From: Rickettsiales bacterium
Lineage (GTDB): Bacteria; Pseudomonadota; Alphaproteobacteria; Rs-D84
Assembly (NCBI GenBank): GCA_031256175.1
Contig: JAIRRC010000032.1
Coordinates: forward strand, 347-64,346
Direction of reading: 5' to 3'
DNA length: 64,000 nt
Part shown: one piece after another, positions 3,742 through 56,139 of the stretch
Position numbering within the stretch: the first letter of the stretch is position 1
Layout of the letters: the number at the start of each line of letters is the position of its first letter
Notes under the pieces: generated by a model
Seen by the model: the letters and a program-made list of their open reading frames with translations, nothing else
What the model was told of the DNA's origin: nothing
The model's database searches: none
Made by a program: the position numbers and the translations under genes

Positions 3742-4251
3742 CTAGGATAGTTCGGGGAACCAGAGGGAAATTTCGAACGCGGCTTCGTCCGCCGTTCCGC
3801 TCGCGTGCATAAGGTTGTGGCACGCGCGTTTCTCGGCGTTCGACAAGTCGTAGGAATCCATGCAATATTTCCCGCGTATCGTCGCCGGGTCCGCCGCCGC
3901 GGGATTCGTCGTGCCGCAAAGCTTGCGCACTATCGCGACCGCTTCGTTGCCCGAAAGAACCATCGCCATAACGCCGCCCGTTATATAATCCATCAATCTG
4001 TCGTAGACGATTTGCCCCTGCTTCATGCATGCGGCTTTGTCCGCGGACGCGCCCAAGTTTTTGCGGCCCAAACTTTCTATATATTCCGGCGCGCAGGAAT
4101 AATGCTTGTTCAGCAATTCTTTCGGCGGGGTGAAAAATTTCGCCGCGATTATATCCAGACCGGCGTCCTCGAACACAGATATTATTTTCCCGCAAAGCTT
4201 CCGCTTCACCGCGTCGGGTTTCAGGATTATCAGGGTGCGTTCGATTGGCAT
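3742..4251 (-). CDS. ndk: nucleoside diphosphate kinase
   Basis: ERTLIILKPDAV N-terminal NDK signature; start trimmed to MPIERTL. Confidence 0.8.
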   Translation of the reverse strand: MPIERTLIILKPDAVKRKLCGKIISVFEDAGLDIIAAKFFTPPKELLNKHYSCAPEYIESLGRKNLGASADKAACMKQGQIVYDRLMDYITGGVMAMVLSGNEAVAIVRKLCGTTNPAAADPATIRGKYCMDSYDLSNAEKRACHNLMHASGTADEAAFEISLWFPELS

Positions 4252-5899: not shown

Positions 5900-6114
5900 C
5901 TCTGCTTCCTTTTTGTTAAACGACAATGCGCGCCTTCCGACGGCATCTCGCGACGCGCACATCAATTCGCGCCTAATAACGGCGCTTATTGTGCGCTTAT
6001 TCGCTCGCTGTCATCTGTCTTTGCCAGACCATGCGTTTGTCATTTCCTTTATGTTTATAGCTAGACCGGATGATTTTACAATGCTATAATCCGTTTGTCA
6101 AATGGAGCCGAAAA

Positions 6115-8505: not shown

Positions 8506-9909
8506 TTAGCCTTCCAGTTTCGGGAAGAGGACGACCGGGTTTTTCGTTTTGAAAGATTCGATTATATTCGCGGACGCCGCCGGCATAATCGGCCGGGCCA
8601 TATAAGCCAATTCCAAGACTCCCTGCCCCAATGTTTTCAAGACCGACAGCAATTCTTCGCGTTTCGCCCCGTCTTTCGCAAGCGACCAGGGCTGCGTTTT
8701 ATCTATATATAGATTAAGTTCCGAGCTTTTATTCAAGATATTTTCCGCAAGCGATTTGATGTCCGAAAGGTTTTCTATTCCTGGCGCCTTGGGCTGGACG
8801 GACAATTCCATATCCGGCGAATATTTCTCCATCATCTTGAATGTGCGAAGATAAAGATTGCCGAAGTTGTTCGCAAGCACGCCGTATTCTTTTTTCAGCA
8901 AATCTTCCGATATGACGGAATCCTTCGCAATCGCCGCGTTATGCGCGAAGTAAAACCTTAACGCGTCCGCGCCAAGCTCGCCTATAACTTTGAACGGGTC
9001 GATGGTATTGCCCAGGCTTTTCGACATTTTGACGCCGCCTTCGCCCGTCCAGAAGGCATGGACACAAGTCCGATGCGCGGGCGGCAGGCCGAAGCTTCGC
9101 AGCATTATCGGCCAATAGATGCAATGCGCCTTCAGTATGTCTTTGCCTATGACGTGGATGGAGTTTTTCCAAAGCGAGTCGAATTTGTTTATGCGAAGCG
9201 AAGTTATATAATTTATCAGGGCGTCATACCAGACATAGGCGACTTGGTCCGTATCGAACGGGAATTCTATGCCGGCGGACACGCGCTTTTTCGGGCGCGA
9301 AATCGACAAGTCGTCAAGCGGTTCTTTAAGCATGTTCAAGACTTCGGCGCGGTAGCTTTCAGGCTGAATCCATTCGGGATTTTCATTTATATACCCGACC
9401 AGCCATTCGCGGTGCGGCTCCAATGGAAGCAAATAATTTTCCTCCTCCATCTCGGTCGGCGCCTTCTGGTGGTCGGCGCATAAGCCGCGCGCGTCCAGGT
9501 CGGATTCCTTTTTGAACTGCTCGCACCCGACGCAGTAAAGTCCCTTGTATTTTTTCTTCACAAGAATTTTTTTCGCGTGCGCGTCCGCCAGCCATTCCTG
9601 GACTATCTTTTTATGCTCCGGCATAGTGGTTCGAATGAAAAAATCCGGCGTCGCGCCAAGCTCGTCCGCAAGCTGTTTGAAACGCGCGCTTTGCTTCGCC
9701 GCGAATTCTTCGAAGGGCAATCCGGCGGCGGCTGCGGCGTCCTGCATTTTCTGCCCGTGCTCGTCCGTGCCTGTCGTGAAGAAGACGTTGTCGCCTTGCA
9801 GCTTGAAGGCGCGGCGCAGGATGTCGCACATCGCGGTGGTATAGGCGCTGCCCAGATGCGGCGCGCCGTTCGGATAATAAATCGGGGTAGTTATGTATTT
9901 TTCAGCCAT
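8506..9909 (-). CDS. metG: methionine--tRNA ligase (short form)
   Basis: TTPIYYPNGAPHLGSAYTT N-terminus, KMSKS motif, Zn knuckle CVGCEQF..CADH. Confidence 0.8.
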   Translation of the reverse strand: MAEKYITTPIYYPNGAPHLGSAYTTAMCDILRRAFKLQGDNVFFTTGTDEHGQKMQDAAAAAGLPFEEFAAKQSARFKQLADELGATPDFFIRTTMPEHKKIVQEWLADAHAKKILVKKKYKGLYCVGCEQFKKESDLDARGLCADHQKAPTEMEEENYLLPLEPHREWLVGYINENPEWIQPESYRAEVLNMLKEPLDDLSISRPKKRVSAGIEFPFDTDQVAYVWYDALINYITSLRINKFDSLWKNSIHVIGKDILKAHCIYWPIMLRSFGLPPAHRTCVHAFWTGEGGVKMSKSLGNTIDPFKVIGELGADALRFYFAHNAAIAKDSVISEDLLKKEYGVLANNFGNLYLRTFKMMEKYSPDMELSVQPKAPGIENLSDIKSLAENILNKSSELNLYIDKTQPWSLAKDGAKREELLSVLKTLGQGVLELAYMARPIMPAASANIIESFKTKNPVVLFPKLEG

Positions 9910-10792: not shown

Positions 10793-10868
10793 GGGGCCGT
10801 AGCTCAGTTGGTAGAGCGCTTCGTTCGCAATGAAGAGGTCGGGAGTTCGAATCTCCTCGGTTCCACCA
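10793..10868 (+). tRNA. tRNA-Ala (anticodon CGC)
   Basis: 76-nt cloverleaf, G3:U70 Ala identity pair, anticodon loop TTCGCAA, encoded CCA. Confidence 0.9.
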
Positions 10869-10993
10869 TTAACTTGGTACCGCGCCATCCTTCGTTCCCT
10901 CGCGACGCGCACATCAACTCACGGCTAACAACGCCGCTCGTTGTGTGCTTATTCGCTCGTGCTCGAATCCGATTGGCTCCACCATTAACTTGG
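10869..10993 (+). repeat. tRNA-3'-associated structured element (family A, copy 2) ending in a direct repeat of the tRNA-Ala 3' end
   Basis: ~100-bp segment ~85% identical to 30574-30669 and to 5925-6020; 16-bp exact DR TCCACCATTAACTTGG at 10862-10877 and 10978-10993. Confidence 0.65.
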
Positions 10994-13119: not shown

Positions 13120-14025
13120 TTAGGACAGCCTCTTTTTCAAAGGCGCGATGTATTTGTCCATTATAGGGTCGTCAACTTCGTTCTGGTCGCAGATGTCGAA
13201 CGCTTCCCTTGTGTATTTCCTTATCCCGCCCGCCGCGCCGCCGCAGCCCGAACCGCGCGGCGCCCTTTTCGAATATTCCTCCCACGATTTGCAATGGTAA
13301 TGATTGCACCTTATCGCGAAGCCTTCTATCGGGCCTTCGTTCGACATGACGTTTTTCCCGGCGAACATATGGCGGCGGTGGATTCCGGGGCGCGCCGTGA
13401 AGCGCGGGTTCGCGATGGTCTTATACATGTCGCCCGGAAGTTTGAAATTGTTTTTCGCCGCGCGGGTTTTGAAATTCTCTATAACCAGGCCAGCCGGTTT
13501 CTTCTCGTGGCCGTTCGAACCATACATGACCCAGCCCGCCCAAACCTGCGAAGTATCTTTCGGAAGCGAATCCAGATATTCCGTTATGGTTTCATGTTCC
13601 GTCGGCACCAAGAATTCGTCCAAGTCTATAACCGCGAACCATTTCGCTTCGAATTTTTTCGTGTCGAAGGCGTGCTGATAAACGGCCAGCTGCTGCTTCT
13701 GGCCCGGCCAGAATTTATACTCGACCACGCCGGATTTTATATAAGGCGCCAAAACTTCCTTTATATCGTCCGTCGATTCATTGTCATAGATATAAAACTT
13801 TTCCACGCCAAGCATGCGATGGTATTCAATCCATTCGCGGAAATACGCGCCCTCGTTTTTCGCGATGGCGACTATCGCGAGCTTATAAGGAAATTCCAGC
13901 TTCGGTTCGGCAAGGCGCGCGCGTATGGATTTTATCAAACCGAAATGCAAAATGTTTCTTGCGCGGACGCGCCAAGGTCTGTAAGGAATCAATCCGCCGA
14001 TTATGTTTATTAGGGTTTTCTTCAT
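13120..14025 (-). CDS. glycosyltransferase family 92 (DUF23) protein, paralog 1
   Basis: AIAKNEGAYFREWIEYHRMLGVEKFYIYDNESTD..IDLDEFLVP signature; paralogous to 38734-39654 and 39651-40532. Confidence 0.75.
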   Translation of the reverse strand: MKKTLINIIGGLIPYRPWRVRARNILHFGLIKSIRARLAEPKLEFPYKLAIVAIAKNEGAYFREWIEYHRMLGVEKFYIYDNESTDDIKEVLAPYIKSGVVEYKFWPGQKQQLAVYQHAFDTKKFEAKWFAVIDLDEFLVPTEHETITEYLDSLPKDTSQVWAGWVMYGSNGHEKKPAGLVIENFKTRAAKNNFKLPGDMYKTIANPRFTARPGIHRRHMFAGKNVMSNEGPIEGFAIRCNHYHCKSWEEYSKRAPRGSGCGGAAGGIRKYTREAFDICDQNEVDDPIMDKYIAPLKKRLS

Positions 14026-28255: not shown

Positions 28256-29220
28256 TTCCTGATGTCCCTTATGATTTTGAACGCGGCCGATTCCGGGTCG
28301 ATGTTCAACGCGTCCGCCGCCGACAATTCCGACGAAGCGCCCGAATAAAGTTCCGCCAGCGACGGGTTGTCCGACGATAAATAATGTATGACGTCCAGCA
28401 ATATCGCCATCGTTTCGTCGTTCGCCGACAATTGCTTCGCGGTTTCCATAAGCTTCGACACTTTCGCGTCCGGATTCGAAATTATATCGGCGACTTCGAA
28501 CATATCCGGGAAATCGTCGCCGCCGCCAAGGACCGAAACCGCCTTGGCCACGCTGCCGCCGCTTACGGCCGCCGCGCGGCCCAGCTTTTCCATATCCGCG
28601 TCCATACCGGCCGCTTCGATTAGGATTTTCCGGACGTCGGATTCGCTTAGAACGCCCATGCGCAAAACCTGCGCGCGCGATTTGATTGTCGGCAGGACGC
28701 CCGCCAATTTATGCGCGACTATAAGGAACAGGGTTTTCGCGGGCGGTTCCTCTAAAATTTTCAGCAGAGAATTAGCGGCGTTCCTGTTCATGTCGTCTAT
28801 CGAGTCGATTATAACCACGCGCCAGCCGTCGCCCGACGCGGACATGCGCAAACTTTCGGTCATCTTGCGGACGAAATCGACCGAGATTTCGGTTTTTTCC
28901 TCGGGGTCGGTTTCAAGCGACAAAATCGCCAGGTCCGCATAGCCGCCGTCGAGATACCTTTGGAAAGCCGCGGAATCCGGCGAAATTTCCAAGCTGTCGC
29001 CATCATTATCGGCGAAAATGAATTTAGCTATGCGGTGCGCAAGGGTTGCTTTGCCTATCCCCTTCGGGCCCGCCAGAATCCAGACGGGGTGCAGCGGGCG
29101 CAATGCGCGGTTCTTCCAAGCGTCCAGGAATATTTTTTCCGGCGCGGCGTGTCCCAGCAGATTCGCGCGGCGCATCGGGTGCAAAGTTTCGAAACTATTT
29201 TCCGCGGCCTTCTTCGCCAT
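28228..29220 (-). CDS. holB: DNA polymerase III subunit delta'
   Basis: AAA+ clamp-loader-like GPKGIGKATLAHRIAKFI, ~330 aa, genomic context with tatD. Confidence 0.7.
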   Translation of the reverse strand: MAKKAAENSFETLHPMRRANLLGHAAPEKIFLDAWKNRALRPLHPVWILAGPKGIGKATLAHRIAKFIFADNDGDSLEISPDSAAFQRYLDGGYADLAILSLETDPEEKTEISVDFVRKMTESLRMSASGDGWRVVIIDSIDDMNRNAANSLLKILEEPPAKTLFLIVAHKLAGVLPTIKSRAQVLRMGVLSESDVRKILIEAAGMDADMEKLGRAAAVSGGSVAKAVSVLGGGDDFPDMFEVADIISNPDAKVSKLMETAKQLSANDETMAILLDVIHYLSSDNPSLAELYSGASSELSAADALNIDPESAAFKIIRDIRKCLSIPTAI

Positions 29221-30404
29221 TATTTTTTCCCGCCGAATATGATTGAAACATTTTTGAACATGCGGCCGAAGTATCTCATCTTGTTCACGTCGCTTTTCGC
29301 GACAAGCGGTATGGTCGCGACAAGCTCGCCGTCGTCCTCTATTACGATTTCGCCGACCTTGTCGCCTGCGCGCACGGGCGCCGGGACCGGGTCTTCGAAT
29401 CTGGCCAGGATTCTGACTTTCGATATGCCCTGCCCGTTTTTCAAAGTCATGGCGACGTTCCGCGCCGGGGCCGCCTCGACTTTTTCCTGGCGGCCATACC
29501 AGACGGGGATTTTCGCGACGACCTCGCCTTCCTTGAAGAACATGCGCGTCGCCGTATTCGCGAAGCCGTATTCCAGCATGCGCTTCATTTCCGACGCCAA
29601 TGCGTTGTGGTCCTTGGCGCGAAGTCCGTTAATCACGCCGACCAATCTGCGGTTGCCCTTCTTCGCCGACGCGACCATGCCGTATCCGCCGGTAGTCGTA
29701 TGGCCGGTTTTCAATCCGTCCGCGCCCGGCATTATGAACAGCAGTTTATTATAGCTGACGCTGTGAAGGTCGCCCCATTGCTGGCACCAGCCGGATTTAT
29801 ATTCGCCGAACTCGAACCGGCGCGTGGAAAACATCGGATAATATTCCGGGTATGTCCTTATGATATAGTCCGCCAGGATTCCAAGCTCGCGCGTCGTCAT
29901 AAGATTATCCGGCGTCGGAAGGCCCGTGGAATTTCCGAAGCTTGACTGCGCCATGCCGATGGAGCGCGCCTTTTTCAGCATCATAGTCGCGAAGTCCGCT
30001 TCCGTCCCGGCCAACCTTTCGGCCACGACCACGCCCGCGTCGCCGCCCGACATGACAATCAGGCCCATGACGGCGTCCTGGACGGAAATATCATGACCCG
30101 CCGAAAGGCAGATTTTCGAGGCCGTATTCCAGACCGGATTCTTATAATCGGCGTTGTCCGAAACCTGCATGCGGTCCGTCATCTTCAGGCGGCCGTCTTT
30201 CAGCGCGTCGAACGCGAGCGCGAGCGTCATAAGCTTTATCATCGAGGACGGCGGCATAAGGACGTCGGCGTCTTTGGCGACTATGGCGCCGGCCGAGTCG
30301 AAGTCCATCAGGAAAGCCGACTTGGCGTTGGTTTCGAAATCCCTTGCCTGCGCCATAAGCGGCAGGTTAATCGCAAGGACAAGGAAAAATATAAGTTTCT
30401 TCAT
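29220..30404 (-). CDS. dacC: D-alanyl-D-alanine carboxypeptidase (serine-type, PBP5/6-like)
   Basis: Signal peptide, SMIK (SxxK) active-site motif, penicillin-binding fold plus C-terminal domain. Confidence 0.8.
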   Translation of the reverse strand: MKKLIFFLVLAINLPLMAQARDFETNAKSAFLMDFDSAGAIVAKDADVLMPPSSMIKLMTLALAFDALKDGRLKMTDRMQVSDNADYKNPVWNTASKICLSAGHDISVQDAVMGLIVMSGGDAGVVVAERLAGTEADFATMMLKKARSIGMAQSSFGNSTGLPTPDNLMTTRELGILADYIIRTYPEYYPMFSTRRFEFGEYKSGWCQQWGDLHSVSYNKLLFIMPGADGLKTGHTTTGGYGMVASAKKGNRRLVGVINGLRAKDHNALASEMKRMLEYGFANTATRMFFKEGEVVAKIPVWYGRQEKVEAAPARNVAMTLKNGQGISKVRILARFEDPVPAPVRAGDKVGEIVIEDDGELVATIPLVAKSDVNKMRYFGRMFKNVSIIFGGKK

Positions 30405-30459
30405 GCGGGCGCCTTCGTTCGTTCACGCGATTATAGACCAAAGGAATACGAAAATCAAC

Positions 30460-30487
30460 TTGATTTCAAGCCCATGGCGGCTATAAT
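30460..30487 (+). promoter_or_regulatory. putative sigma70 promoter of tRNA-Gln
   Basis: TTGATT-16 nt-TATAAT ending 12 nt before tRNA 5' end. Confidence 0.5.
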
Positions 30488-30499
30488 GACGCGTCTTAT

Positions 30500-30573
30500 T
30501 GGGGCGTCGTCTAACGGTAGGACAAGAGATTTTGGTTCTCTTTATCGCGGTTCGAATCCGTGCGCCCCAACCA
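30500..30573 (+). tRNA. tRNA-Gln (anticodon UUG)
   Basis: 74-nt cloverleaf, U1:A72, anticodon stem AGAGA/TCTCT, loop TTTTGGT, encoded CCA. Confidence 0.85.
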
Positions 30574-30688
30574 GAATGCAGGCGCGCGCCATCCTTCGTT
30601 CCCTCGCGACGCGCACATCAATTCGCCGCTAATAACGCGGCTCATTGTGTGCTTGTTTGCTCGTGCTCGAATCCGTGCGCCCCAACCA
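30574..30688 (+). repeat. tRNA-3'-associated structured element (family A, copy 3) ending in 19-bp direct repeat of tRNA-Gln 3' end
   Basis: 96-bp segment homologous to 10878-10977 and 5925-6020; DR AATCCGTGCGCCCCAACCA at 30555-30573 and 30670-30688. Confidence 0.7.
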
Positions 30689-30855
30689 GATTTTTATCAC
30701 GCCCCGAAGAGGCGGGATAAAAATATGTATTGGGTTGCCGGATGAAGAACCGCGAGGAAGCGGTTCGACAACCAGCGTTGCATTTTTAATGCAACGCGCA
30801 GGTGCGGCGAAGCAAGGACGCCAGTCCTTGCGAGTCAATCCGTGCGCCCCAACCA
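30689..30855 (+). repeat. second tandem tRNA-3'-associated element (family B) ending in third copy of the tRNA-Gln 3' direct repeat
   Basis: 148-bp segment with perfect hairpin GCGTTGCAT-TTTTA-ATGCAACGC; third DR at 30837-30855; weak similarity to the tRNA-Met associated segment. Confidence 0.65.
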
Positions 30856-30869
30856 AATAGAGGTGAGAA

Positions 30870-31736
30870 ATGTCGATATTCATAGACATCGGGTCCAGCA
30901 CTATCAAGACTTATGAATTATCCGCCGGTGGCGCTTTGGATTTGGTCGACGAGTTTTCAACTTTATTCAAAGACGGGTTCGCGCCGGACGCGGGCGTCGC
31001 GGAAGACAAGATAAATGCGCTGCTTACGCATCTCTCGAAATGGCGCGGGCAAGACGTCAAGACTTTCGCCACGGGAATTTGGCGAGAAATTCCGGCCGCG
31101 CAACTCGCATTCTTAAAATCAAATTCGCCCGTCGGTTTCGACGTCATTTCGCACGACGACGAGGCGCGCTACTTGAAACAAGCCGCAGCCCTGCCTTTCA
31201 ACGGCAAGAAGGCCTTGGTTATAAACATGGGCGGCAAAACGACCGAGCTTGTGTCCGTCGAACAGGGCGGCGCCGTTAAAACGCAGCTGCTTAAAATCGG
31301 CGTCGCGGATTTGCTGAACAAGTTCCCCGAAGTGAACGAAGAAAAATCCGGCGCGTCCATAAGCGACATGGAAAAATTCGTCGCCGAGAAACTCGCGTCG
31401 GAAGAATTCGACACGGACTACGACTTCGCGCTTTTCACGGGCGAGCTGCGGTTCGAAAAACTTTCCGGTTATCCCCTTGAACCGAACACTCAATTTTCGG
31501 AATCCAACCATCCGTTCCAAGTTTCCATCGAAGGTTTCGTCGCTGGCACGATGCGCATATTTTTCGACATGACTATGGCCGAACTTCGCGCGCTTATGCC
31601 CAAAAATCCGAACTGGATGACGGGCGCGCGGCCGGGCGCGGTCCTGCCGCTTGCCATCTTCAACCGGGCCGGTATAAAGGTCGTGGTGCCAAGCGATTTG
31701 AACCTTATAAACGGCGCCGTCCGCGACTTCATATAA
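30870..31736 (+). CDS. Ppx/GppA-family phosphatase-like (ASKHA fold) protein
   Basis: IDIGSSTIK..VISHDDEARYLKQAA..LVINMGGKTTELV match Ppx/GppA N-domain motifs. Confidence 0.6.
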   Translation: MSIFIDIGSSTIKTYELSAGGALDLVDEFSTLFKDGFAPDAGVAEDKINALLTHLSKWRGQDVKTFATGIWREIPAAQLAFLKSNSPVGFDVISHDDEARYLKQAAALPFNGKKALVINMGGKTTELVSVEQGGAVKTQLLKIGVADLLNKFPEVNEEKSGASISDMEKFVAEKLASEEFDTDYDFALFTGELRFEKLSGYPLEPNTQFSESNHPFQVSIEGFVAGTMRIFFDMTMAELRALMPKNPNWMTGARPGAVLPLAIFNRAGIKVVVPSDLNLINGAVRDFI

Positions 31737-38733: not shown

Positions 38734-39654
38734 TTAACTCAGGCGTTTTTTAAGGGGTGCGATGAATTTATCCATTATGGGGTCGGACACTTCGTTATGG
38801 TCGCAATTGTCGAAGAATTCCCGCGTGTATTTTTTCGCCCCGTGCGCTATGCCGCCCCTGCCCGTTCCGCGCGGCGCGCGCTTCTGGTATTCTTCCCACG
38901 ATTTGCAATGGTAATGGTTGCACCGAATCCCCCAGTCCGAAATCTTCCCGTCGCATTCCCTGACCTGCACGCCGGCGTCCAAGGTCCCCTGGTCGTGGCA
39001 ACTGGTCGCGATGACCAGGCGCGGATTGAAAACGCTTTTATGCGCGGGCCCGGGAAGCTTGAAATTATTCTCGGCCGCGCGGGTTTTGAAATTCTCTATA
39101 ACCAGGCCCGATGGTTTGGTCAAATGCCCGCCGCTGCCATACATCGCCCAGCCGACCAAAACTTGCGAAGCGTTTTTCGGCAATTTATCCAGATATTCCG
39201 GAATCGTTCCATCCTTCGTCGGGACCAAGAATTCATCCAAGTCGATGATGGCCATCCATTTCGTAGCGTATTTATGTTTCTTTATCGAATCCCAGTAGGC
39301 CTGCAACTGCACCCTTTGGCCCGGCCAGAATTTGTATTCCACCAGGCCCGATTTCATATAAGGCGTAAGCACCGACCTTGTGTTGTCAGTGGATTCATTG
39401 TCGTAAATGTAAAACTTCTCGACGCCCAGCATGCGATGGTATTCAATCCATTCCTTGAAATACGCGCCTTCGTTTTTCGCAATCGCGGTTATGGAAAGCT
39501 TATAGCGGAACTTCAATTTATGCTCGGTTTTCCGGAACCGGCGCGCGGCCAGGCAATAATTCACAAGCCCGAACGTCAAAGCGTTCCTGACTTTATGGCG
39601 CCGCTGCGGGTTCTTGAAAAACGCCGAGATTATATTCGCGAAAAATTTCCTCAT
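38734..39654 (-). CDS. glycosyltransferase family 92 protein, paralog 2
   Basis: Same GT92 signature; true start MRKFF at 39654 (ATGA overlap with paralog 3 stop); the upstream ORF extension to 40173 is another frame of paralog 3. Confidence 0.75.
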   Translation of the reverse strand: MRKFFANIISAFFKNPQRRHKVRNALTFGLVNYCLAARRFRKTEHKLKFRYKLSITAIAKNEGAYFKEWIEYHRMLGVEKFYIYDNESTDNTRSVLTPYMKSGLVEYKFWPGQRVQLQAYWDSIKKHKYATKWMAIIDLDEFLVPTKDGTIPEYLDKLPKNASQVLVGWAMYGSGGHLTKPSGLVIENFKTRAAENNFKLPGPAHKSVFNPRLVIATSCHDQGTLDAGVQVRECDGKISDWGIRCNHYHCKSWEEYQKRAPRGTGRGGIAHGAKKYTREFFDNCDHNEVSDPIMDKFIAPLKKRLS

Positions 39655-40532
39655 GCCTTTTCCTTTATGTCGTTCAAGTCGAATTTTTCGAAATAGTCCA
39701 GGCCGCGCTTGGCCAAAGACCGCGTCGCGCGGCCGCGCGCGCGCTTGTCCAAGAATTCCTGCCAGCTTTTGACCGCGTAATGCTTTATAAAAATCACGTC
39801 GTGCTGAGGCACGCGGCCCGGATGTTGGCGCAATATCGCGTCGCCGTGGGAATCCGCCGCGCGGCCGGCCAAGCGCACGGCTTCGTGCGTGCCGACGAAG
39901 GACGAAACCATTCTTGGATTCACTATCGCTTTGACATGGCGGTTCACTTCGGCTTCCGGGCGCGCGTGGCAGCGGAAGCGCGCCATGACGCCCCCGGCCG
40001 TTTTCTTCTTCGCGCCGCCGCTGCCGTAGCACAGCCAGTTGATTTCGACCAATGCGAATTTTTCGAACCGGCGCAAAAACTTTGGGATGGTTTTGTCCGC
40101 GACCGGCGCGATGAATTCGTCCAAGTCTATGAACGCAATCCAGCGCGCGTCCAGCCTGCGGCGCGCAAGGCAATCGTTGTATGACGGAATCTGCTTCAAT
40201 CTGCCCGGCACAAAAGTATATTCGACCAGGCCGGATTTTATGTATGGAGCCAAAACTTTTTTGGTATCGTCCGTCGATTCATTGTCGTATATATAGAATT
40301 TCTCGACGCCGAGCGCGCGGTGCCATTCAATCCATTCCTTGAAATAAGCGCCCTCGTTCTTGGCAATCGCCGCGACGGCGAGATAGTATTTCGGGCGGGT
40401 TTTGTCCGCGCGCATTTTGCGGCGCAGAAGAAACGCGCGAATCAGGCCAAAATTCACAAGCCCGCGAACGCGGCTTCGCGCGACTTTGCCCGGGACGAAG
40501 GCGGCGACGATTTCAGCGAGGACTTTTTTCAT
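39651..40532 (-). CDS. glycosyltransferase family 92 protein, paralog 3
   Basis: AIAKNEGAYFKEWIEWHRALGVEKFYIYDNESTDD..IDLDEFIAP. Confidence 0.75.
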   Translation of the reverse strand: MKKVLAEIVAAFVPGKVARSRVRGLVNFGLIRAFLLRRKMRADKTRPKYYLAVAAIAKNEGAYFKEWIEWHRALGVEKFYIYDNESTDDTKKVLAPYIKSGLVEYTFVPGRLKQIPSYNDCLARRRLDARWIAFIDLDEFIAPVADKTIPKFLRRFEKFALVEINWLCYGSGGAKKKTAGGVMARFRCHARPEAEVNRHVKAIVNPRMVSSFVGTHEAVRLAGRAADSHGDAILRQHPGRVPQHDVIFIKHYAVKSWQEFLDKRARGRATRSLAKRGLDYFEKFDLNDIKEKA

Positions 40533-49946: not shown

Positions 49947-51053
49947 CTATTTCACTATGCCGTGGAACTGGGCGAACAGCGCCGGGTTCATAATCGCGCC
50001 GCTTGCCGCGAAGGCCATATTCGCGCCTTCCTCGAACCGGCCGTCGAACTGGCGGCCGTGAACCACGCCGCCGCTGCTGCCGATTGAAAGCGTGTCGGCC
50101 TTCAAATGTTTCTTAATAAGCGCCATGTCGGAAAGCCATTTGGTCGCGAAGGACTCTATGCCCGCGCCGCAGACGCCCGAAACCGCGTTCGGGCTTCCGT
50201 CCGCTTTCGTGCGGCCCGGAAGCGCCGGCGCGCCGTCCGCGTCCACGACGTTCATGGAAATGGTATTGATTCCGACTATGCCGTCGACGCCGGCGCGCAG
50301 CGCTTCGTCCGCCACTATCATCATGCCGTGCATGTCGGATTCTTTCGGATTGTTCTTGCAGGCGTGCCAGCCGACTTTGATATGAACCGGAATGTTCCAT
50401 CCGATTTCGTTCCTGACAGCCGCGACTATGCCGGCGACGAAGTCCGCGTCGGCGTATATGATTCCAAGTTCCGGCTTCACGTTCGGGCATGAAAGGTTAA
50501 GCTCGATTTCCTTGGCGCCGGCTTCGACCGCAAGGCGCGCCGCGCGGGCGTAATCCTTGGCCAAGGCCAATTTCGCCTGGTCGGCGGAAAGGCCGCCCGC
50601 GTTCTTATCCGGGCTGCCGACGACCGAGACAATCATGCGGCGGTTGAATTTTTCGGCGTATTGCTGGGACGCGGCGACATCGGGCATCCAAACGTCGGGC
50701 GAATCGGACGGCATTCCGAATGAATTCGTCATGGTCCATGATTCGTTCGAAGACGACGCAAGCGCCGTTCCGCCCGGAATTATTTCGGCGTTCTTTTCGA
50801 CGAATATGCAGTTCGGATGCGGCAGGCACTGCCATCCTTGGGAACGGATGGTCTTATACACGACGATTCCGGCGCCCATGTCGACCGCGTATTTTATGAA
50901 GTTGTAATCCAGAAGCGGACCGGCGGCGACGCCGACCTGCGCCTTGGCCTGGGCCGGGGTCAGGATATAGGGCTTTTCGATTTTCGGGGGATTCTTGCGG
51001 TTGTCCGCATAGGATATTCCGGGATTGTATAGAGAGGACATGGCATGCTCCAT
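49947..51053 (-). CDS. dihydroorotate dehydrogenase-family (class 1-like) flavoprotein
   Basis: ELNLSCPN signature of DHOD/DHPD family, TIM-barrel length. Confidence 0.65.
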   Translation of the reverse strand: MEHAMSSLYNPGISYADNRKNPPKIEKPYILTPAQAKAQVGVAAGPLLDYNFIKYAVDMGAGIVVYKTIRSQGWQCLPHPNCIFVEKNAEIIPGGTALASSSNESWTMTNSFGMPSDSPDVWMPDVAASQQYAEKFNRRMIVSVVGSPDKNAGGLSADQAKLALAKDYARAARLAVEAGAKEIELNLSCPNVKPELGIIYADADFVAGIVAAVRNEIGWNIPVHIKVGWHACKNNPKESDMHGMMIVADEALRAGVDGIVGINTISMNVVDADGAPALPGRTKADGSPNAVSGVCGAGIESFATKWLSDMALIKKHLKADTLSIGSSGGVVHGRQFDGRFEEGANMAFAASGAIMNPALFAQFHGIVK

Positions 51054-51095: not shown

Positions 51096-51300
51096 TGGTG
51101 GGTTAGCACGGACTCGCTCGCCCTTGCGGGCTGCGCGGCATTCGTATTCGCCGCTTGCGCGGCTTCGTTCGAACTTCGCCTTACGGCTCGTTCTCACTAA
51201 CTCATTGTCGAACCGCCCGCCGCTTCGCGGCTCTTTGCGGATTCTCGTCCGCGCATAATTATCCAAAAATTTGCGACAGCCTTCGGCCGTCTTAAATTTT
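51096..51300 (-). repeat. tRNA-3'-associated element downstream of tRNA-Met ending in a 21-bp direct repeat of the tRNA 3' end
   Basis: 184-bp ORF-less segment; DR TGGTGGGTTAGCACGGACTCG at 51301-51321 and 51096-51116. Confidence 0.65.
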
Positions 51301-51377
51301 TGGTGGGTTAGCACGGACTCGAACCGCGGACCAAAGCGTTATGAGCGCTCCGCTCTAACCAACTGAGCTACTAACCC
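51301..51377 (-). tRNA. tRNA-Met (anticodon CAU; elongator or tRNA-Ile2)
   Basis: 77-nt cloverleaf, G1:C72 (not initiator), anticodon loop CTCATAA, encoded CCA. Confidence 0.85.
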
Positions 51378-51495
51378 GTTCCATATGCGTCGTCCAATTA
51401 TAGCGGCGGAATCGAAAAATGCAACGCCTTTTTTGCCTTTCTCAGGAATTCATACCGATAGCTATAATTTCCTCGGCCGCGCTATCCTTCCAGAC

Positions 51496-51966
51496 ATGAA
51501 GAAAGCTATATTTTTTATTTTGGCGGCGATAATGCACGCGAACCCCGTTCTGGCGGCGACAGCGACAGGAAACGCTTCGGTTGTAATACAGCCGACGATT
51601 ACGGCGACCCAGACCCAGGCGATGAATTTCGGGACCATAACGCCGACCGCAAGCGCCGGGACCGCCGTGCTTTCGACCGCGGGGGCCGTCACCAGCGGAA
51701 CGCTCGGGACATACGACACAACGACGCAGGGCATATTCACGATTACGGCCGCGGACAGCACCGCGCTTAACATAACGTTTTCCACCGGAACGCTGACGTC
51801 GGGCGGCAACAGCATGACCATCAACGCCTTCACCACAAGCCCGGCGACTTATACCACCAGCGCTTCGGGCACGCTGACGCTGGATGTCGGCGCGACGCTG
51901 AACGTCGCGGCGAACCAGGCCACGGGCTCTTACAGCGGGACCTATACGATGACGGTCAGTTATTGA
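51496..51966 (+). CDS. spore-coat-U (SCPU) domain pilin, Csu-type major subunit
   Basis: Signal peptide, Thr/Ser/Gly-rich, C-terminal TGSYSGTYTMTVSY motif. Confidence 0.6.
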   Translation: MKKAIFFILAAIMHANPVLAATATGNASVVIQPTITATQTQAMNFGTITPTASAGTAVLSTAGAVTSGTLGTYDTTTQGIFTITAADSTALNITFSTGTLTSGGNSMTINAFTTSPATYTTSASGTLTLDVGATLNVAANQATGSYSGTYTMTVSY

Positions 51967-52877
51967 AAAACGCCCTATCGGTTTTCGCCGCATTCGTATT
52001 ATTATTACGAAGCGCCGCAGCGTCGACCTTCGTAGTATCGCAGGACCTGTCGTTCGGGACGCTTGTTCCGATTTCAAGCTCGGGCAGCGTGGTCGTCGGA
52101 ATCAACAGCGCCATCACGACCAACGGCTCGGTAAGCGTCGCGCCAAGCGGCACCGCTTATTACGCGGGGCTGGGCGTCTTCACAGGAAGCGGTTTAAGCG
52201 TGGTCGCGGACGTCCTTACGATAACCATCCTGTCCAGCAGCGTCAATCTGTCGAACGGAAGCGGCGGGGTCGTGGTCGTGAACAATTTCACCGCGACGCC
52301 GAATTCGTCCATATCGCTTCTGTCGCCCAGCACGAACGTCTATGTCGGCGGAACGATGAACTTCACGTCGGCGTCGACGCCCGGGAACTATACCGGTTCC
52401 GTCCAGGTTCAGGGAAGCGGTTTGCTTAGCGGAACGGTTGTCATGACTTTGCCAATCATACTGACATTGTGGAATCCGCTGGGCATATCGCAGACGGCGG
52501 CGCTGTCGTTCGGCGGGCTTGAAATACTTGGCGGGAATTCGGTCGTGCAAATCGCGCCGCAGACCGGCGCGCGGACAATCGTTTCGGGAACGGGCGGCGT
52601 GAACCTTATATCCGGCAATCCGGGGAACGCGGGCGTTTTCCAGATAACCGGGAATCCGAACACAAGCGTCACGATAACCCTGCCAAGCACCGCAAGCCTG
52701 ACCGGGCCCGGAACCGCGATGAGCGTAAGCAATTTCACGGGGTATCCAAGCTCGACCGCGGCGACGCTTGGCGCAAGCGGAACGCTGACGCTGGACGTCG
52801 GCGCGCAGCTGAACGTGAACGCGGCCCAGGCGGCCGGGACATACAGCGGAACATATACGCTGACCGCAAGCTACTAA
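51963..52877 (+). CDS. SCPU-domain fimbrial subunit (larger, possibly tip or second subunit)
   Basis: Same composition and C-terminal AGTYSGTYTLTASY; overlaps previous stop. Confidence 0.55.
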   Translation: MKNALSVFAAFVLLLRSAAASTFVVSQDLSFGTLVPISSSGSVVVGINSAITTNGSVSVAPSGTAYYAGLGVFTGSGLSVVADVLTITILSSSVNLSNGSGGVVVVNNFTATPNSSISLLSPSTNVYVGGTMNFTSASTPGNYTGSVQVQGSGLLSGTVVMTLPIILTLWNPLGISQTAALSFGGLEILGGNSVVQIAPQTGARTIVSGTGGVNLISGNPGNAGVFQITGNPNTSVTITLPSTASLTGPGTAMSVSNFTGYPSSTAATLGASGTLTLDVGAQLNVNAAQAAGTYSGTYTLTASY

Positions 52878-52888
52878 AAGGACAAGAA

Positions 52889-53647
52889 ATGAAAAAAATC
52901 GCGCTGTTCGCCATGCTTCTTTCAATCATTCCCCTTCCGGTTTTTCCGAACATATCGCTATCGCCGTTCTTTCTGGAATTCGACGCCGATTCGAAAAACA
53001 AATCCGGCCAGGTGCGGTTCACCAACTCCACGAGCGAGACGCGCACATACAATATAAAGCTGGTGAATTTCAAACAGAACAAGGACGGGTCCTACACGAC
53101 CATAACGGCGCCCGTCGACGGGAATCCATCCGCCGATTATTATCTGGAATATTCGCCGCGGCAGGTTTCGCTTCCATCGATGAAATCCCAGGTCGTGCGC
53201 GTCCAGCGCCGCGGGATGGCGGGCGCCGCGCCGGGCGAATACGTTTCGCACCTGCTGGTCCAGGAAGTCCCGAAAGAGAAAAAATCCGAAAATAAAAAAC
53301 CCGAAGGCATAAGCATCGACCTGAAAGTCGTCTATGGAATTTCGATTCCCGTCATCATAACGAAGGGAAGCCTTTCGGCAAGCGCGCGAATCAAAAGCGC
53401 GAAGATTTCCAAAAAAGACCATGTCGCCGAAGTCGAAATCGAAAGGTCCGGGGACAGGTCGTTCTTCGGCTCGATAATAATAAAGGACAACGGAAGCGAA
53501 ATCGGAAAGATTTCGGACTTCCGGATTTTCACGACGACCAAATCGCGCGTCCTTAAAGTTCCGCTAAGCAAGAACCCGTCGGGCGAGGCTTCCGCCACGC
53601 TCATCGACGGGCGCACGGGCGAAATCGCCGGGATAAAAGGCATATAG
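52889..53647 (+). CDS. periplasmic pilus chaperone (PapD/CsuC-like)
   Basis: Signal peptide, Ig-like chaperone N-domain pattern, position between pilins and usher. Confidence 0.6.
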   Translation: MKKIALFAMLLSIIPLPVFPNISLSPFFLEFDADSKNKSGQVRFTNSTSETRTYNIKLVNFKQNKDGSYTTITAPVDGNPSADYYLEYSPRQVSLPSMKSQVVRVQRRGMAGAAPGEYVSHLLVQEVPKEKKSENKKPEGISIDLKVVYGISIPVIITKGSLSASARIKSAKISKKDHVAEVEIERSGDRSFFGSIIIKDNGSEIGKISDFRIFTTTKSRVLKVPLSKNPSGEASATLIDGRTGEIAGIKGI

Positions 53648-53649
53648 AT

Positions 53650-56139
53650 GTGTCCAGAAAACTCTGCGCCGCTTTATTCATATTCGCGACCGGCGGCGCC
53701 GCGGCGGAAACGACGCTTCTGGCGCCCAACATACAGGGATACAATTCCGAAGCGATAATCCATGCGTTCGATTCCGGCGGCAAATATTATCTGGACGCGC
53801 ATGACCTGTCGGAATCGCTTCGATTCCAATTCGACCCGGACACCGGAAAAGGCAGCTTTCTGGGCAAAGATTTTTACGCGGGCGCGAAATCCGGGCGCGT
53901 GAAAAAAAACGGGCGCGACTATTATCCATTGGATTTCTACGAAAGGATTCTTCCGGTGAAGCTGAAAGTGAACGCGCTTGAATCGCAACTGGAAGTCCGG
54001 TCGGAACAAACCCTTCCGACCACGCAGAACCATCGCAATGAAGCGCGCCGCCAGAACATGGCGCCCGCGCCCAAGGACGACCCCTTCGGCAACTATGAAT
54101 TCGACGAAAGGTTCTTCTCGGCCCCAGTATCCGACCTGATTTACAGGCGAAGCGAAACAAAAGCGCGCGGCGGCAGCTGGTCCGGCGGCGACTATTATCA
54201 GGCCAACCTGGGGATGCTGTTCGCCGGGCTTGACTCCACATCGACGATATTCGGCGACAACAGGGCGGACGCGCCGCGCGCGCGGATAATCGTCGGGCGC
54301 ACTTTTTTAGAGGAACCGCGCAACGCCGCGAACCTGGTCAAGTTCCAGGCCGGCGATATTTTCGGAAACCCGAACAGCATGTTCAACCGCAACGCTTCGG
54401 GGCGCGGCGTCTATGCGAATTCGTTCAAGGACCTGGTCATATCCGCCGACAAGACAATCGACATAAACGGCCTTATGCCCAGCGGATGGGAGGCCGAGCT
54501 TTACCTGAACGACCAGCTGATAGGATTCCGCCAGGGAAGCACCGACGGAAGATACGATTTCAGGAACATTCCCGTGAACTACGGCCTGAACAATTTCAAG
54601 GTCGTGCTATACGGGCCTTTCGGCGAAGTCCGCGAGGAAGAACGCAGGTATTATTCCGGAACCGCGCCCGTCAAATCAGGCGAATTCGGATACAGCGCCA
54701 GCGCGTATCAGGCGCGAAGATTTCTGATAGAAGCCAACGAGCCCAACGCCGACCGGCGCGAAAACATAACCGCCGACTCGCTTTTCTATTACGGCGCAAG
54801 CGACCACCTGGTTCTTATCGCGGGCGCCTCGAACGCGCCCAGCGCCACTGAAAAAGGCAAGGACCTGCAATTCGGGACCGCGGGCGCGCAGGTCGCGCTG
54901 AACGGGGTGTCGCTTCAATACAACCTCAACGGCGATTTCCAGAATGAAAAAATCGGGCACCATGCGGACGCGCAAGGCAACATCCATATCGGCGACGTTT
55001 TCGCGCGATACGAATACTACGGCGAAACCCGCGCGCCGATTTCGCACTACCAGGGAAAATATCTGAACGATTTGTTCGAAGGCCGCCTTACCGGATGGAT
55101 TCCATTCGCGAACATCCCGTATTACGCGTCGTATTTGCAGAACGATTTTCCGGTCCGCGAAGTCCGCGCGCGAATGTCGCCGAACTTTCTGCGCCATTAC
55201 AACCAGACGTTCGAGAATGTCTGGCGGGACAACGCCGGAAGCGTCGAGAACCACGTCGAATCCCTGACGCAGGCGACGTTCGGAAGGTTCAGAATCTTCG
55301 CGCGCGCAAGATACCAGACCCAGCCCGACAACTATTGGCGAAGCTACGGCGGCTTTTCGGAATACCGGTGGAACCGCAACACTTTCATAAACGCAAGCTG
55401 GAACCACGACTGCCGCTCGAACTATATGGACGCGCGCGATTTGGATTCCGGCACAATCGGAATCGGCCGCATATTTCCCTTCGGCGGGCTGCAAGCGTCG
55501 GCGACTATGGACACCGACCGGAACATTTCGTTCGGCCTGACTTACAACGCAAGCTTCGGCAAAGTTCCGGACAGATACGCGCCATTCATGAATTCGGAAA
55601 CGCAGATGGCGAACTATGGCGCCATATACGCGCGCGCGGTCGACGAAAGCGGCGCGCCCGTCAAAAACGCGAAGATAATCGTCGGCGGCGTCCAGCAGCC
55701 CGCGTCCACCGACGAGGACGGCGGCGCACTTATCGTGAATTTGGAGCCGTATCAAAAAACCATCATGACCATAGACGAGCAAGACGTGGACGACATCGCG
55801 CTTACGCCGGAATGGACGCAAAAGAAACTTGTCCTGCGGCCGGGCACCGCGCGCCTTGTCGAAATCCCGTTCCACCGCCTGGGCGGAATCGAAGGCATCC
55901 TGACCGGCACCGCGCCCGGCGTCAGATACAAGATTTACGTGAAGGACGAACTGGGCGCAAGCGCGGCCGTCAAAATCGCCGACGAAGACGGCGCGTTCCT
56001 GTTCGACGGACTGAAATACGGCGATTACAGATTGGAAATTTTCGTCGGGCAAGACAGGCTTGTCGCGACTCAGAACATAAAAATCGACAGAAGTTTCCGC
56101 TCCATCGAAACGCCAATCGATGTCCGGTTGAAAAACTAG
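53650..56139 (+). CDS. fimbrial usher outer-membrane protein (CsuD-like)
   Basis: 829 aa, signal peptide, beta-barrel-rich, operon context. Confidence 0.65.
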   Translation: MSRKLCAALFIFATGGAAAETTLLAPNIQGYNSEAIIHAFDSGGKYYLDAHDLSESLRFQFDPDTGKGSFLGKDFYAGAKSGRVKKNGRDYYPLDFYERILPVKLKVNALESQLEVRSEQTLPTTQNHRNEARRQNMAPAPKDDPFGNYEFDERFFSAPVSDLIYRRSETKARGGSWSGGDYYQANLGMLFAGLDSTSTIFGDNRADAPRARIIVGRTFLEEPRNAANLVKFQAGDIFGNPNSMFNRNASGRGVYANSFKDLVISADKTIDINGLMPSGWEAELYLNDQLIGFRQGSTDGRYDFRNIPVNYGLNNFKVVLYGPFGEVREEERRYYSGTAPVKSGEFGYSASAYQARRFLIEANEPNADRRENITADSLFYYGASDHLVLIAGASNAPSATEKGKDLQFGTAGAQVALNGVSLQYNLNGDFQNEKIGHHADAQGNIHIGDVFARYEYYGETRAPISHYQGKYLNDLFEGRLTGWIPFANIPYYASYLQNDFPVREVRARMSPNFLRHYNQTFENVWRDNAGSVENHVESLTQATFGRFRIFARARYQTQPDNYWRSYGGFSEYRWNRNTFINASWNHDCRSNYMDARDLDSGTIGIGRIFPFGGLQASATMDTDRNISFGLTYNASFGKVPDRYAPFMNSETQMANYGAIYARAVDESGAPVKNAKIIVGGVQQPASTDEDGGALIVNLEPYQKTIMTIDEQDVDDIALTPEWTQKKLVLRPGTARLVEIPFHRLGGIEGILTGTAPGVRYKIYVKDELGASAAVKIADEDGAFLFDGLKYGDYRLEIFVGQDRLVATQNIKIDRSFRSIETPIDVRLKN

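Follow-up and report, generated by a model that had tools for sequence, protein, structure and literature searches.

A gene-less 205-bp insertion at the 3' end of a tRNA-Met gene in a Rickettsiales genome: a candidate miniature or decayed integrative element

Introduction

How does a tRNA gene come to be followed, after a short non-coding segment, by a second and exact copy of its own 3' end? The question is raised by a tRNA-Met(CAU) gene in the DNA of an uncultured Rickettsiales bacterium, within a stretch of 64,000 nucleotides that was analysed as a whole and is referred to here as the window. On the minus strand, this gene (51377-51301) – called by both ARAGORN and Rfam (RF00005, 68.8 bits) – is followed by 184 non-coding nt (51300-51117) and then by a perfect repeat of its last 21 nt, CGAGTCCGTGCTAACCCACCA (51116-51096). 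The original prediction described this arrangement from the sequence, and it proved to be real, being borne out by both tRNA callers, by repeat comparison and, at the distal junction, by an independent Logan assembly.

Architecture of the tRNA-Met locus

The features of the locus, in minus-strand order, are these:

51397-51424, minus strand: promoter-like TTGCAT and TATAAT with a 16-nt spacer, upstream of tRNA-Met (read from the sequence; hexamers conserved in the relative's locus L148)
51301-51377, minus strand: intact tRNA-Met(CAU) (ARAGORN; Rfam RF00005)
51301-51321, minus strand: proximal 21-nt repeat copy, T-loop C56 to CCA, attL-like, inside the functional tRNA (100% identity)
51266-51300, minus strand: hairpin 1, starting at the first base past CCA (MFE fold; terminator-like score)
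51117-51265, minus strand: GC-rich insert body with short hairpins, ending in GCGAG (fold; modest similarity to 30725-30836)
51096-51116, minus strand: distal exact 21-nt copy, a putatively displaced tDNA fragment, attR-like (junction confirmed by Logan contig L001)
51054-51095, minus strand: 42-nt leader of the DHOD-like gene, aligning with the relative's 41-nt tRNA-to-gene spacer
49947-51053, minus strand: DHOD-like / Dus-like gene (PF01180), a neighbour outside the insert

The two copies of the 21-mer lie 205 nt apart from start to start, with the 184 nt between them, and the edges of the repeat are sharp, identity breaking off abruptly at both sides. The 21-mer does not occur a third time within the 64-kb window, and the chance expectation for an exact 21-mer within 1.5 kb is ~3e-10 (about 1500 x 4^-21). 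At the distal junction, the independent assembly (SRR14710886, contig L001) agrees base for base, from 27 nt before the end of the insert, across the 21-nt copy and on through the leader of the gene.

The segment had been called ORF-less, which holds insofar as it contains no Pfam-supported gene, but not literally: a mechanical 85-aa ORF (51314-51057), with a GTG start inside tRNA-Met, spans it. Neither this ORF nor the one across the second insert downstream of tRNA-Gln, described below, has a Pfam match; the latter, the only ORF noted across that insert, lies on the strand opposite to tRNA-Gln, unlike the ORF of the Met insert. The acceptor stem of tRNA-Met carries a G1-C72 pair, and the tRNA is therefore not of the initiator type. 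The promoter-like TTGCAT/TATAAT pair upstream of it was not listed by the consensus scan. The DHOD-like gene starts at 51053 according to JGI, which gives a protein of 368 aa, and at 51041 according to NCBI and Logan, which gives one of 364 aa.

An empty site in a relative

A sister MAG, to which protein MDR0319655.1 belongs, encodes a DHOD-like protein 78% identical to that of the source, the MAG with protein MDR0449415.1. In the relative's locus L148, promoter hexamers, tRNA-Met and gene leader each align with their counterparts in the window, and the sequence runs from the CCA of tRNA-Met directly into the leader, leaving a single clean gap of ~205 nt in the alignment. L148 thus lacks exactly the 205-bp unit, which is therefore a real, lineage-specific insertion. 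Compensatory changes in the T and acceptor stems set the tRNA-Met gene of the window apart from that of L148, and both window copies of the 21-mer have the window-type bases rather than those of L148.

The comparison of orthologous loci, which finds the Met site empty, also bears on two earlier suggestions about the element. The first was that its position immediately upstream of a same-strand gene is one of its features; however, in L148, which has no unit, tRNA-Met and the DHOD-like gene lie 41 nt apart, so the two were neighbours before the insertion, and the placement reflects the target site rather than the element. The second – that the appendage is element-specific and not general to tRNA loci – is upheld, since L148 has the orthologous tRNA-Met/DHOD junction without the segment and tRNA-Val (57488-57412) is bare, no downstream copy of its end having been found. 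As a baseline, none of 18 tRNAs in unrelated loci has a terminus-anchored copy of its 3' end within 1.5 kb, a sample small enough to be indicative only.

The other side of the tRNA also differs between the two genomes. A cluster of ~4.6 kb on the plus strand (51496-56139), lying 5' of tRNA-Met and encoding two DUF4402 proteins, a weak PapD-like chaperone and an 829-aa protein, is absent from L148, where a 115-aa gene stands in its place between a SOD-like gene and tRNA-Met. The right end of the Met insert (51119-51148) resembles the start of the second DUF4402 gene (51971-52000) at 24/30 positions (80% identity, with the exact run GCATTCGTATT), a 30-nt likeness that is probably due to chance.

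Other tRNA-linked units in the window

The same insert architecture is found at tRNA-Gln and also at tRNA-Ala, where the distal copy is imperfect. At tRNA-Gln (30500-30573), two units follow in tandem, giving three copies of the tRNA's end:

30574-30688: family-1 unit, a 93-nt segment and a 22-nt copy of the tRNA end
30689-30855, plus strand: second Gln unit, a 148-nt insert followed by 19 nt that repeat the 3' end of tRNA-Gln, last in the array

The repeats at tRNA-Gln (22 nt and 19 nt) and at tRNA-Met extend from within the T-loop to the terminus of the tRNA, and the Met, second Gln and Gln family-1 units measure 205, 167 and 115 bp. The segment behind tRNA-Ala (10793-10868) also belongs to family 1 and is 91% identical to the family-1 unit at tRNA-Gln over 91 nt; the two have a common right boundary and share most of the left end.

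The tRNA-Ala locus has some peculiarities of its own. Its exact repeat comprises only 16 nt around CCA (TCCACCATTAACTTGG; 10862-10877 and 10978-10993), running 9 nt beyond CCA. The family-1 unit there ends in the T-loop-like CTCGAATC, and the distal copy, counted from CTCGAATC to CCACCA, has ~6 mismatches to the tRNA, could not pair with its T stem and looks as if it were derived from a different tRNA-Ala-like sequence.

Family-1 elements were found at 5925-6020 (+), 10878-10972 (+) and 30582-30676 (+) in the window and at 9195-9290 (-) in a relative's contig, L159. They form a conserved long hairpin of 24 predicted pairs, nine of them with compensatory changes; in the relative, the apical stem is wholly swapped, from CGGC/GCCG to TTTTC/GAAAA, with the loop TAAYAAC and both flanks kept. 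The element has no Rfam match. The first and last of these copies stand alone, with no tRNA fragment adjoining, and lie antisense, ~30-40 nt upstream of a start codon (that of an AMP-binding gene here and of rplI in the relative). The native 3' ends of these stand-alone elements (GTTCATCT / GTCATCTG) resemble a T-loop.

tRNA-Gln and its two inserts lie at a synteny break (29220-31736; relatives' loci L159 9314-11185 and L162 8561-10870). In the relative, rplI precedes the PBP5-like gene and an LPG-synthase gene precedes the Ppx-like gene, with tRNA-Gln at neither place; a site orthologous to that of tRNA-Gln was accordingly not found, neither flanking gene adjoining tRNA-Gln in the relatives examined.

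Is the Met insert related to the second Gln insert?

The Met insert and the second Gln insert open alike, with a long hairpin that has an AU foot, a GC top and a GAAG-containing loop, and both terminate in GCGAG. In between, they share the collinear motifs GGAYGA, CCGCGA, GCGGTTCGACAA (12 nt, exact) and GGCGAAG; those cited earlier (CCGCGA..GAAGCGG..TTCGACAA and GGCGAAG) are indeed present and collinear in both inserts. The suggestion built on them, of a second related element type, fared less clearly. Neither single-sequence nhmmer (E limit 100) nor blastn (E limit 10) paired the two inserts in searches of the window, whereas pairwise alignment finds a modest similarity: the observed score was reached by 6/1000 dinucleotide shuffles in local and by 1-2/1000 in global alignment, and by 5/726 GC-matched genomic controls, giving a pair-specific p of about 0.001-0.007. 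The alignment z of 5.2 is inflated because both inserts consist of an AT-rich hairpin followed by a GC-rich body. On this sequence comparison, membership of the same family is plausible, but the family is not established.

A weak likeness to a known RNA family concerns only one of the two. The body of the second Gln insert (30728-30835, +) aligns end to end with RF02932, including GGCGAAGC and the 3' GCGRGU, at 20.9 bits (E 0.03-0.07), where the gathering score is 49.4; the Met insert has no RF02932 match. A true member of the family (104 bits) lies at 3981-4097 (+) of contig L169, a replicon of Burkholderia sp. THE68, and no tRNA occurs within 4 kb of it. With a sub-gathering score, an unmatched Met insert and a true member that is not linked to a tRNA, RF02932 was rejected as the identity of the Gln insert.

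Proposed origin by integrase-type recombination into the tRNA

Of the ways in which the 205-bp unit may have arisen, we give somewhat better than even credence to its being DNA inserted into the 3' end of tRNA-Met by site-specific recombination of the integrase type – in other words, to its being a miniature or decayed integrative element. Foreign DNA would have entered the 3' end of the gene by a crossover in the T-loop, bringing along a duplicate of the final ~21 nt of the tRNA and so regenerating the gene (attL, 51301-51321), while the original 3' end would have been displaced to the far side of the insert (attR, 51096-51116). The insert might then be a miniature, CIME-like non-autonomous element that carries only cis-acting sequences and relies on a recombinase supplied from elsewhere, or else all that is left of a larger island.

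Three features together favour the integrase-type reading: the repeat from the T-loop to CCA, the displaced 3' fragment and the empty site. Judged by the tests that Islander-type mapping applies, the Met unit consists of an intact tDNA with a cognate 3' fragment downstream in the same orientation; the fragment (C56 to CCA) starts in a known crossover subsite, the T-loop; and the unit is absent from the orthologous site in a related genome (L148). On the other hand, the 184-bp interval contains no integrase, and the 205-bp unit falls outside the length range of 2-200 kb. The subsites known to be used for crossover are the anticodon loop, the T-loop and the T/acceptor junction (PMC4383910). In such integrations, the tDNA fragment of the incoming attP – the size of which is quoted as ~250 bp – regenerates the gene while the original end is displaced, a signature used for island mapping (PMC4383910).

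The unit sizes of 115-205 bp are at or below this attP size, which speaks for the integrase-type reading. Phage Ms6 offers a precedent for the target: the 26-bp core of its attP covers the T-loop and 3' end of tRNA-Ala, and editing the core redirects integration to other tRNA genes (PMC1762012), which shows how related elements could come to sit at tRNA-Met, tRNA-Gln and tRNA-Ala. The tandem units at tRNA-Gln, with their three copies of the tRNA end, fit tandem accretion and successive integrations, for which there are documented cases. The near-identity and mostly common boundaries of the family-1 units point to propagation of the small unit itself rather than to independent decay of large islands.

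The main weakness of the integrase-type reading is that no recombinase was found in the window: the Pfam search returned no tyrosine or serine recombinase, transposase or reverse transcriptase among 48 window ORFs, which include nearly all the larger predicted genes. Nor did searches of viral, phage, plasmid and metagenome sequences find an autonomous relative. On the element side of the distal junction, we could read no T-stem-like inverted half-site, and the homology between the Met and Gln inserts is weak, so that the family is not secure for the Met insert. The family-1 copies without a tRNA fragment indicate, in addition, that the inserted sequences are not obligatorily tied to att sites.

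As to what kind of integrated DNA the Met unit represents, the evidence fits a miniature non-autonomous element and a last remnant alike. Circles of 200 bp are poor recombination substrates, which favours a remnant over active mobility. We infer, rather than observe, the recombinase, which of the two copies arrived with the insert, any choice between miniature element and remnant, and any present-day mobility. A bolder form of the integrase-type reading, which we entertain only tentatively and think rather improbable, is that these units are the counterpart of MITEs in the world of integrases: gene-less, hairpin-rich cassettes of ~100-200 bp with cis sequences of attP size, moved in trans between tRNA genes by an unlinked T-loop-specific recombinase, stacking at tRNA 3' ends and still polymorphic.

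Template switching as an unlikely alternative

An unlikely alternative, though the best placed of the others, dispenses with a recombinase. Replication or repair at the end of a highly transcribed tRNA gene might copy an ectopic donor by template switching and then return to the tRNA through microhomology in the T-loop, so that the last ~20 nt would be copied again. Microhomology would give repeat starts that vary among units, and those observed do so (T-loop bases 55, 56 and 58); the stand-alone family-1 hairpins, with their T-loop-like ends, could serve as donors; and the lack of a recombinase in the window agrees with such a mechanism. However, neither the window nor the relatives' DNA examined holds a donor copy of the Met insert, and four events at three of four tRNAs in 64 kb exceed what would be expected of sporadic repair errors. 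Two of the four, moreover, have nearly identical boundaries, and the tandem array at tRNA-Gln is better explained by repeated site-specific events.

Predicted structure and possible RNA character of the Met insert

The Met insert has a pronounced predicted structure. Hairpin 1, of 35 nt, has an AU foot and a GC-rich top of 7 bp each, closes in a GAA(G) loop and is followed by a T run. The consensus scan rated it terminator-like (GC-rich stem and T run), and it probably serves as a new terminator or processing structure for tRNA-Met. The analogous 13-bp hairpin that opens the second Gln-linked insert does not conform to the terminator pattern. The body of the Met insert folds into several short hairpins with GNRA-like loop caps. 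Against shuffled sequences, the folding z is -4.6 for the whole Met unit and -7.7 for the second Gln unit.

Searches for a known RNA gave little. At the gathering score, Rfam finds only the four tRNAs in the window and no family for the Met insert; at permissive E-values, the Met unit yields only sub-threshold hits to permuted tmRNA and to the NiCo riboswitch. A permuted tmRNA or tRNA-like RNA was rejected, RF04321 scoring 15.4 bits against a gathering score of 47 and ARAGORN finding no tmRNA. A tRNA-like minihelix, a primer-binding site and terminal inverted repeats were likewise rejected, as the closing helix is no better than chance.

That the insert is, or became, a functional non-coding RNA co-transcribed with tRNA-Met strikes us as a shade less likely still than template switching. 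The copy of the tRNA end would pair with the insert's 5' arm to form a minihelix resembling the acceptor and T arms; this would let the RNA be processed like a tRNA, give it a stable CCA end and restore a processing site before the DHOD-like mRNA. The fold statistics speak for such an RNA, and in both MFE folds – that of the Met unit and that of the second Gln unit – the closing helix pairs the same 5' region with the tRNA copy. The consensus scan detected no outward-facing or internal promoter in the Met insert, and the downstream gene presumably still depends on read-through from the tRNA promoter. The end-to-end match between RF02932, an sRNA family, and the second Gln unit, weak as it is, points the same way. 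Yet the complementarity to the tRNA copy, on which the proposed minihelix depends, equals that of shuffled bodies (z about 0 and -0.55; 278/500 and 131/500 shuffles as good), the insert is missing from the close relative L148 and is therefore not a conserved gene, Rfam gives no match at the gathering score, and the genuine RF02932 member has no tRNA linkage. For covariation between copies of the RNA, only two are at hand, the Met and the second Gln units, and these have diverged.

Transposition and artefact as improbable alternatives

A transposon resembling a MITE, which would have made a long target-site duplication on insertion at tRNA ends, is very improbable. The units are small and gene-less, target sequence is directly repeated on either side of them and the site is empty in L148, all of which suits this reading; but the repeats, at 16, 19, 21 and 22 nt, differ in length while their ends all fall on or close to the tRNA terminus, a pattern that a fixed staggered cut would not produce. 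Terminal inverted repeats do not exceed chance either. We know of no bacterial transposase that makes duplications of ~20 bp.

The source being a metagenome-assembled genome, a chance repeat or an assembly artefact might be suspected, but this is already effectively refuted by the chance expectation given above, by the recurrence of the junctions in an independent assembly (Logan contigs of the same run) and by the same architecture at three tRNAs.

Relation to known systems

With the islands and prophages that integrate at tRNA genes (those bearing the Islander signature, and the T-loop class exemplified by Ms6), the window units share an intact tRNA with a same-orientation 3' fragment downstream, identity that spans T-loop to 3' end, a relative in which the site is empty, and tandem arrays at one tRNA. 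They differ in that the Met insert comprises 184 bp without an integrase or any other gene, and no cognate integrase was found. The Met insert is thus far below the size of the tRNA-integrating elements that are normally catalogued, and gene-less; Islander itself discards candidates without an integrase or shorter than 2 kb (PMC4383910).

CIMEs are closer in kind. By definition, a CIME is an integrated element still bounded by attL and attR but stripped of its genes for integration and transfer, and the Met unit answers this description with exact 21-nt repeats and neither class of gene. Common to both are the att-like direct repeats, the lack of recombination genes and – at tRNA-Gln – the tandem position with another unit. 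To our knowledge, the CIMEs described so far are kilobases long and derive from identified ICEs, whereas the Met unit measures ~0.2 kb, its parent element was not found in the viral or metagenome scans and any mobilisation of it is putative. The Met unit is best filed as CIME-like in its working, not as a demonstrated member of the class.

The tycheposon islands of Prochlorococcus offer another parallel, with successive integrations separated only by partial tRNA copies and with the persistence of degenerate remnants; these arrays carry an integrase and cargo, however, whereas the window units consist only of short structured non-coding segments. MITEs and the Rickettsia palindromic elements are likewise short, gene-less, hairpin-rich insertions, the latter in a Rickettsiales genome as here. 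Their duplications are short and of fixed length, unlike the 16-22 nt at the tRNA 3' ends of the window, and the terminal inverted repeats of MITEs have no equivalent in the Met unit, the tRNA-copy duplex being no better than with shuffled bodies. The RF02932 Betaproteobacteria-1 sRNA, finally, bears a likeness only to the body of the second Gln unit.

If the units are mobile as such, recombinases that target tRNA genes would have a class of miniature parasites of their own – one that island-mapping pipelines discard by design through their integrase and >2 kb filters. Three of the four tRNA genes in 64 kb carry a unit, which could mean that a significant and uncounted remodelling of tRNA loci takes place in reduced, endosymbiont-like genomes; its context here includes the synteny break at tRNA-Gln and the 4.6-kb indel beside tRNA-Met. 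If they are only scars, they would mark past integrations and show how thorough the erasure of an island can be while its att repeats stay intact.

Searches for further copies and population variants

Additional copies of the Met/second-Gln type did not turn up in the sequences covered. There is none elsewhere in the window and none in ~130 kb of relatives' DNA searched with nhmmer profiles (L148, L150, L159, L162, L164 and L166-L168). Pattern scans of viral contigs, including IMG/VR, gave no real copy or autonomous relative of the insert, and a stricter pattern gave seven matches in JGI metagenome contigs, all of them chance matches to the pattern only, with no tRNA nearby. Among the matches listed for a loose motif pattern in the genome collection, there were only chance ones; blastn found nothing with the Met insert in the phage collection or with the second Gln insert in the plasmid collection.

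The Logan contigs of the source run offer an indirect view of variation within the sample. They are graph contigs with k=31, and two of their six ends in the window fall exactly 30 nt into visible repeats, namely a family-1 block (30585-30614) and a block shared by GT92 paralogues (39074-39103). Contig ends are found at 30837, 51143, 30614 and 39103 (contigs L170, L001 and L161). Applied to the end at 51143, this rule implies that the 30-mer 51114-51143, which consists of the right end of the Met insert and CGA, the first 3 nt of the repeat, recurs in the sample. This is an indirect hint of a second occurrence, diverging at the next T-loop base, which could be a copy beside a tRNA with the T-loop CGAATCC or a strain SNP. 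The contig passes through the distal repeat of the Met unit without a fork at 51116, which argues against an empty-site haplotype there.

At tRNA-Gln, the Logan contig that carries the downstream gene starts at 30837, the first base of the third repeat, which would fit either a haplotype from which the second Gln unit is missing or a variant (SNP) at the junction. Contig ends at or near the boundaries of tRNA-end copies (30837 and 51143) suggest that the sample contains another haplotype or another copy. The sequences by which such variants would be recognised are, for the predicted empty-site junction, ...GTGCTAACCCACCA joined to CTTTATGCGCC and, for the predicted circle junction, ...GCAAGGGCGAG joined through CGAGTCCGTGCTAACCCACCA to AAAATTTAAGACGG.

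The two genes behind the second of the repeats mentioned above both encode glycosyltransferases of the GT92 family on the minus strand (13120-14025 and 38734-40173), and they share at least one exact 30-mer (at 13457 and 39074), which makes them recent paralogues.
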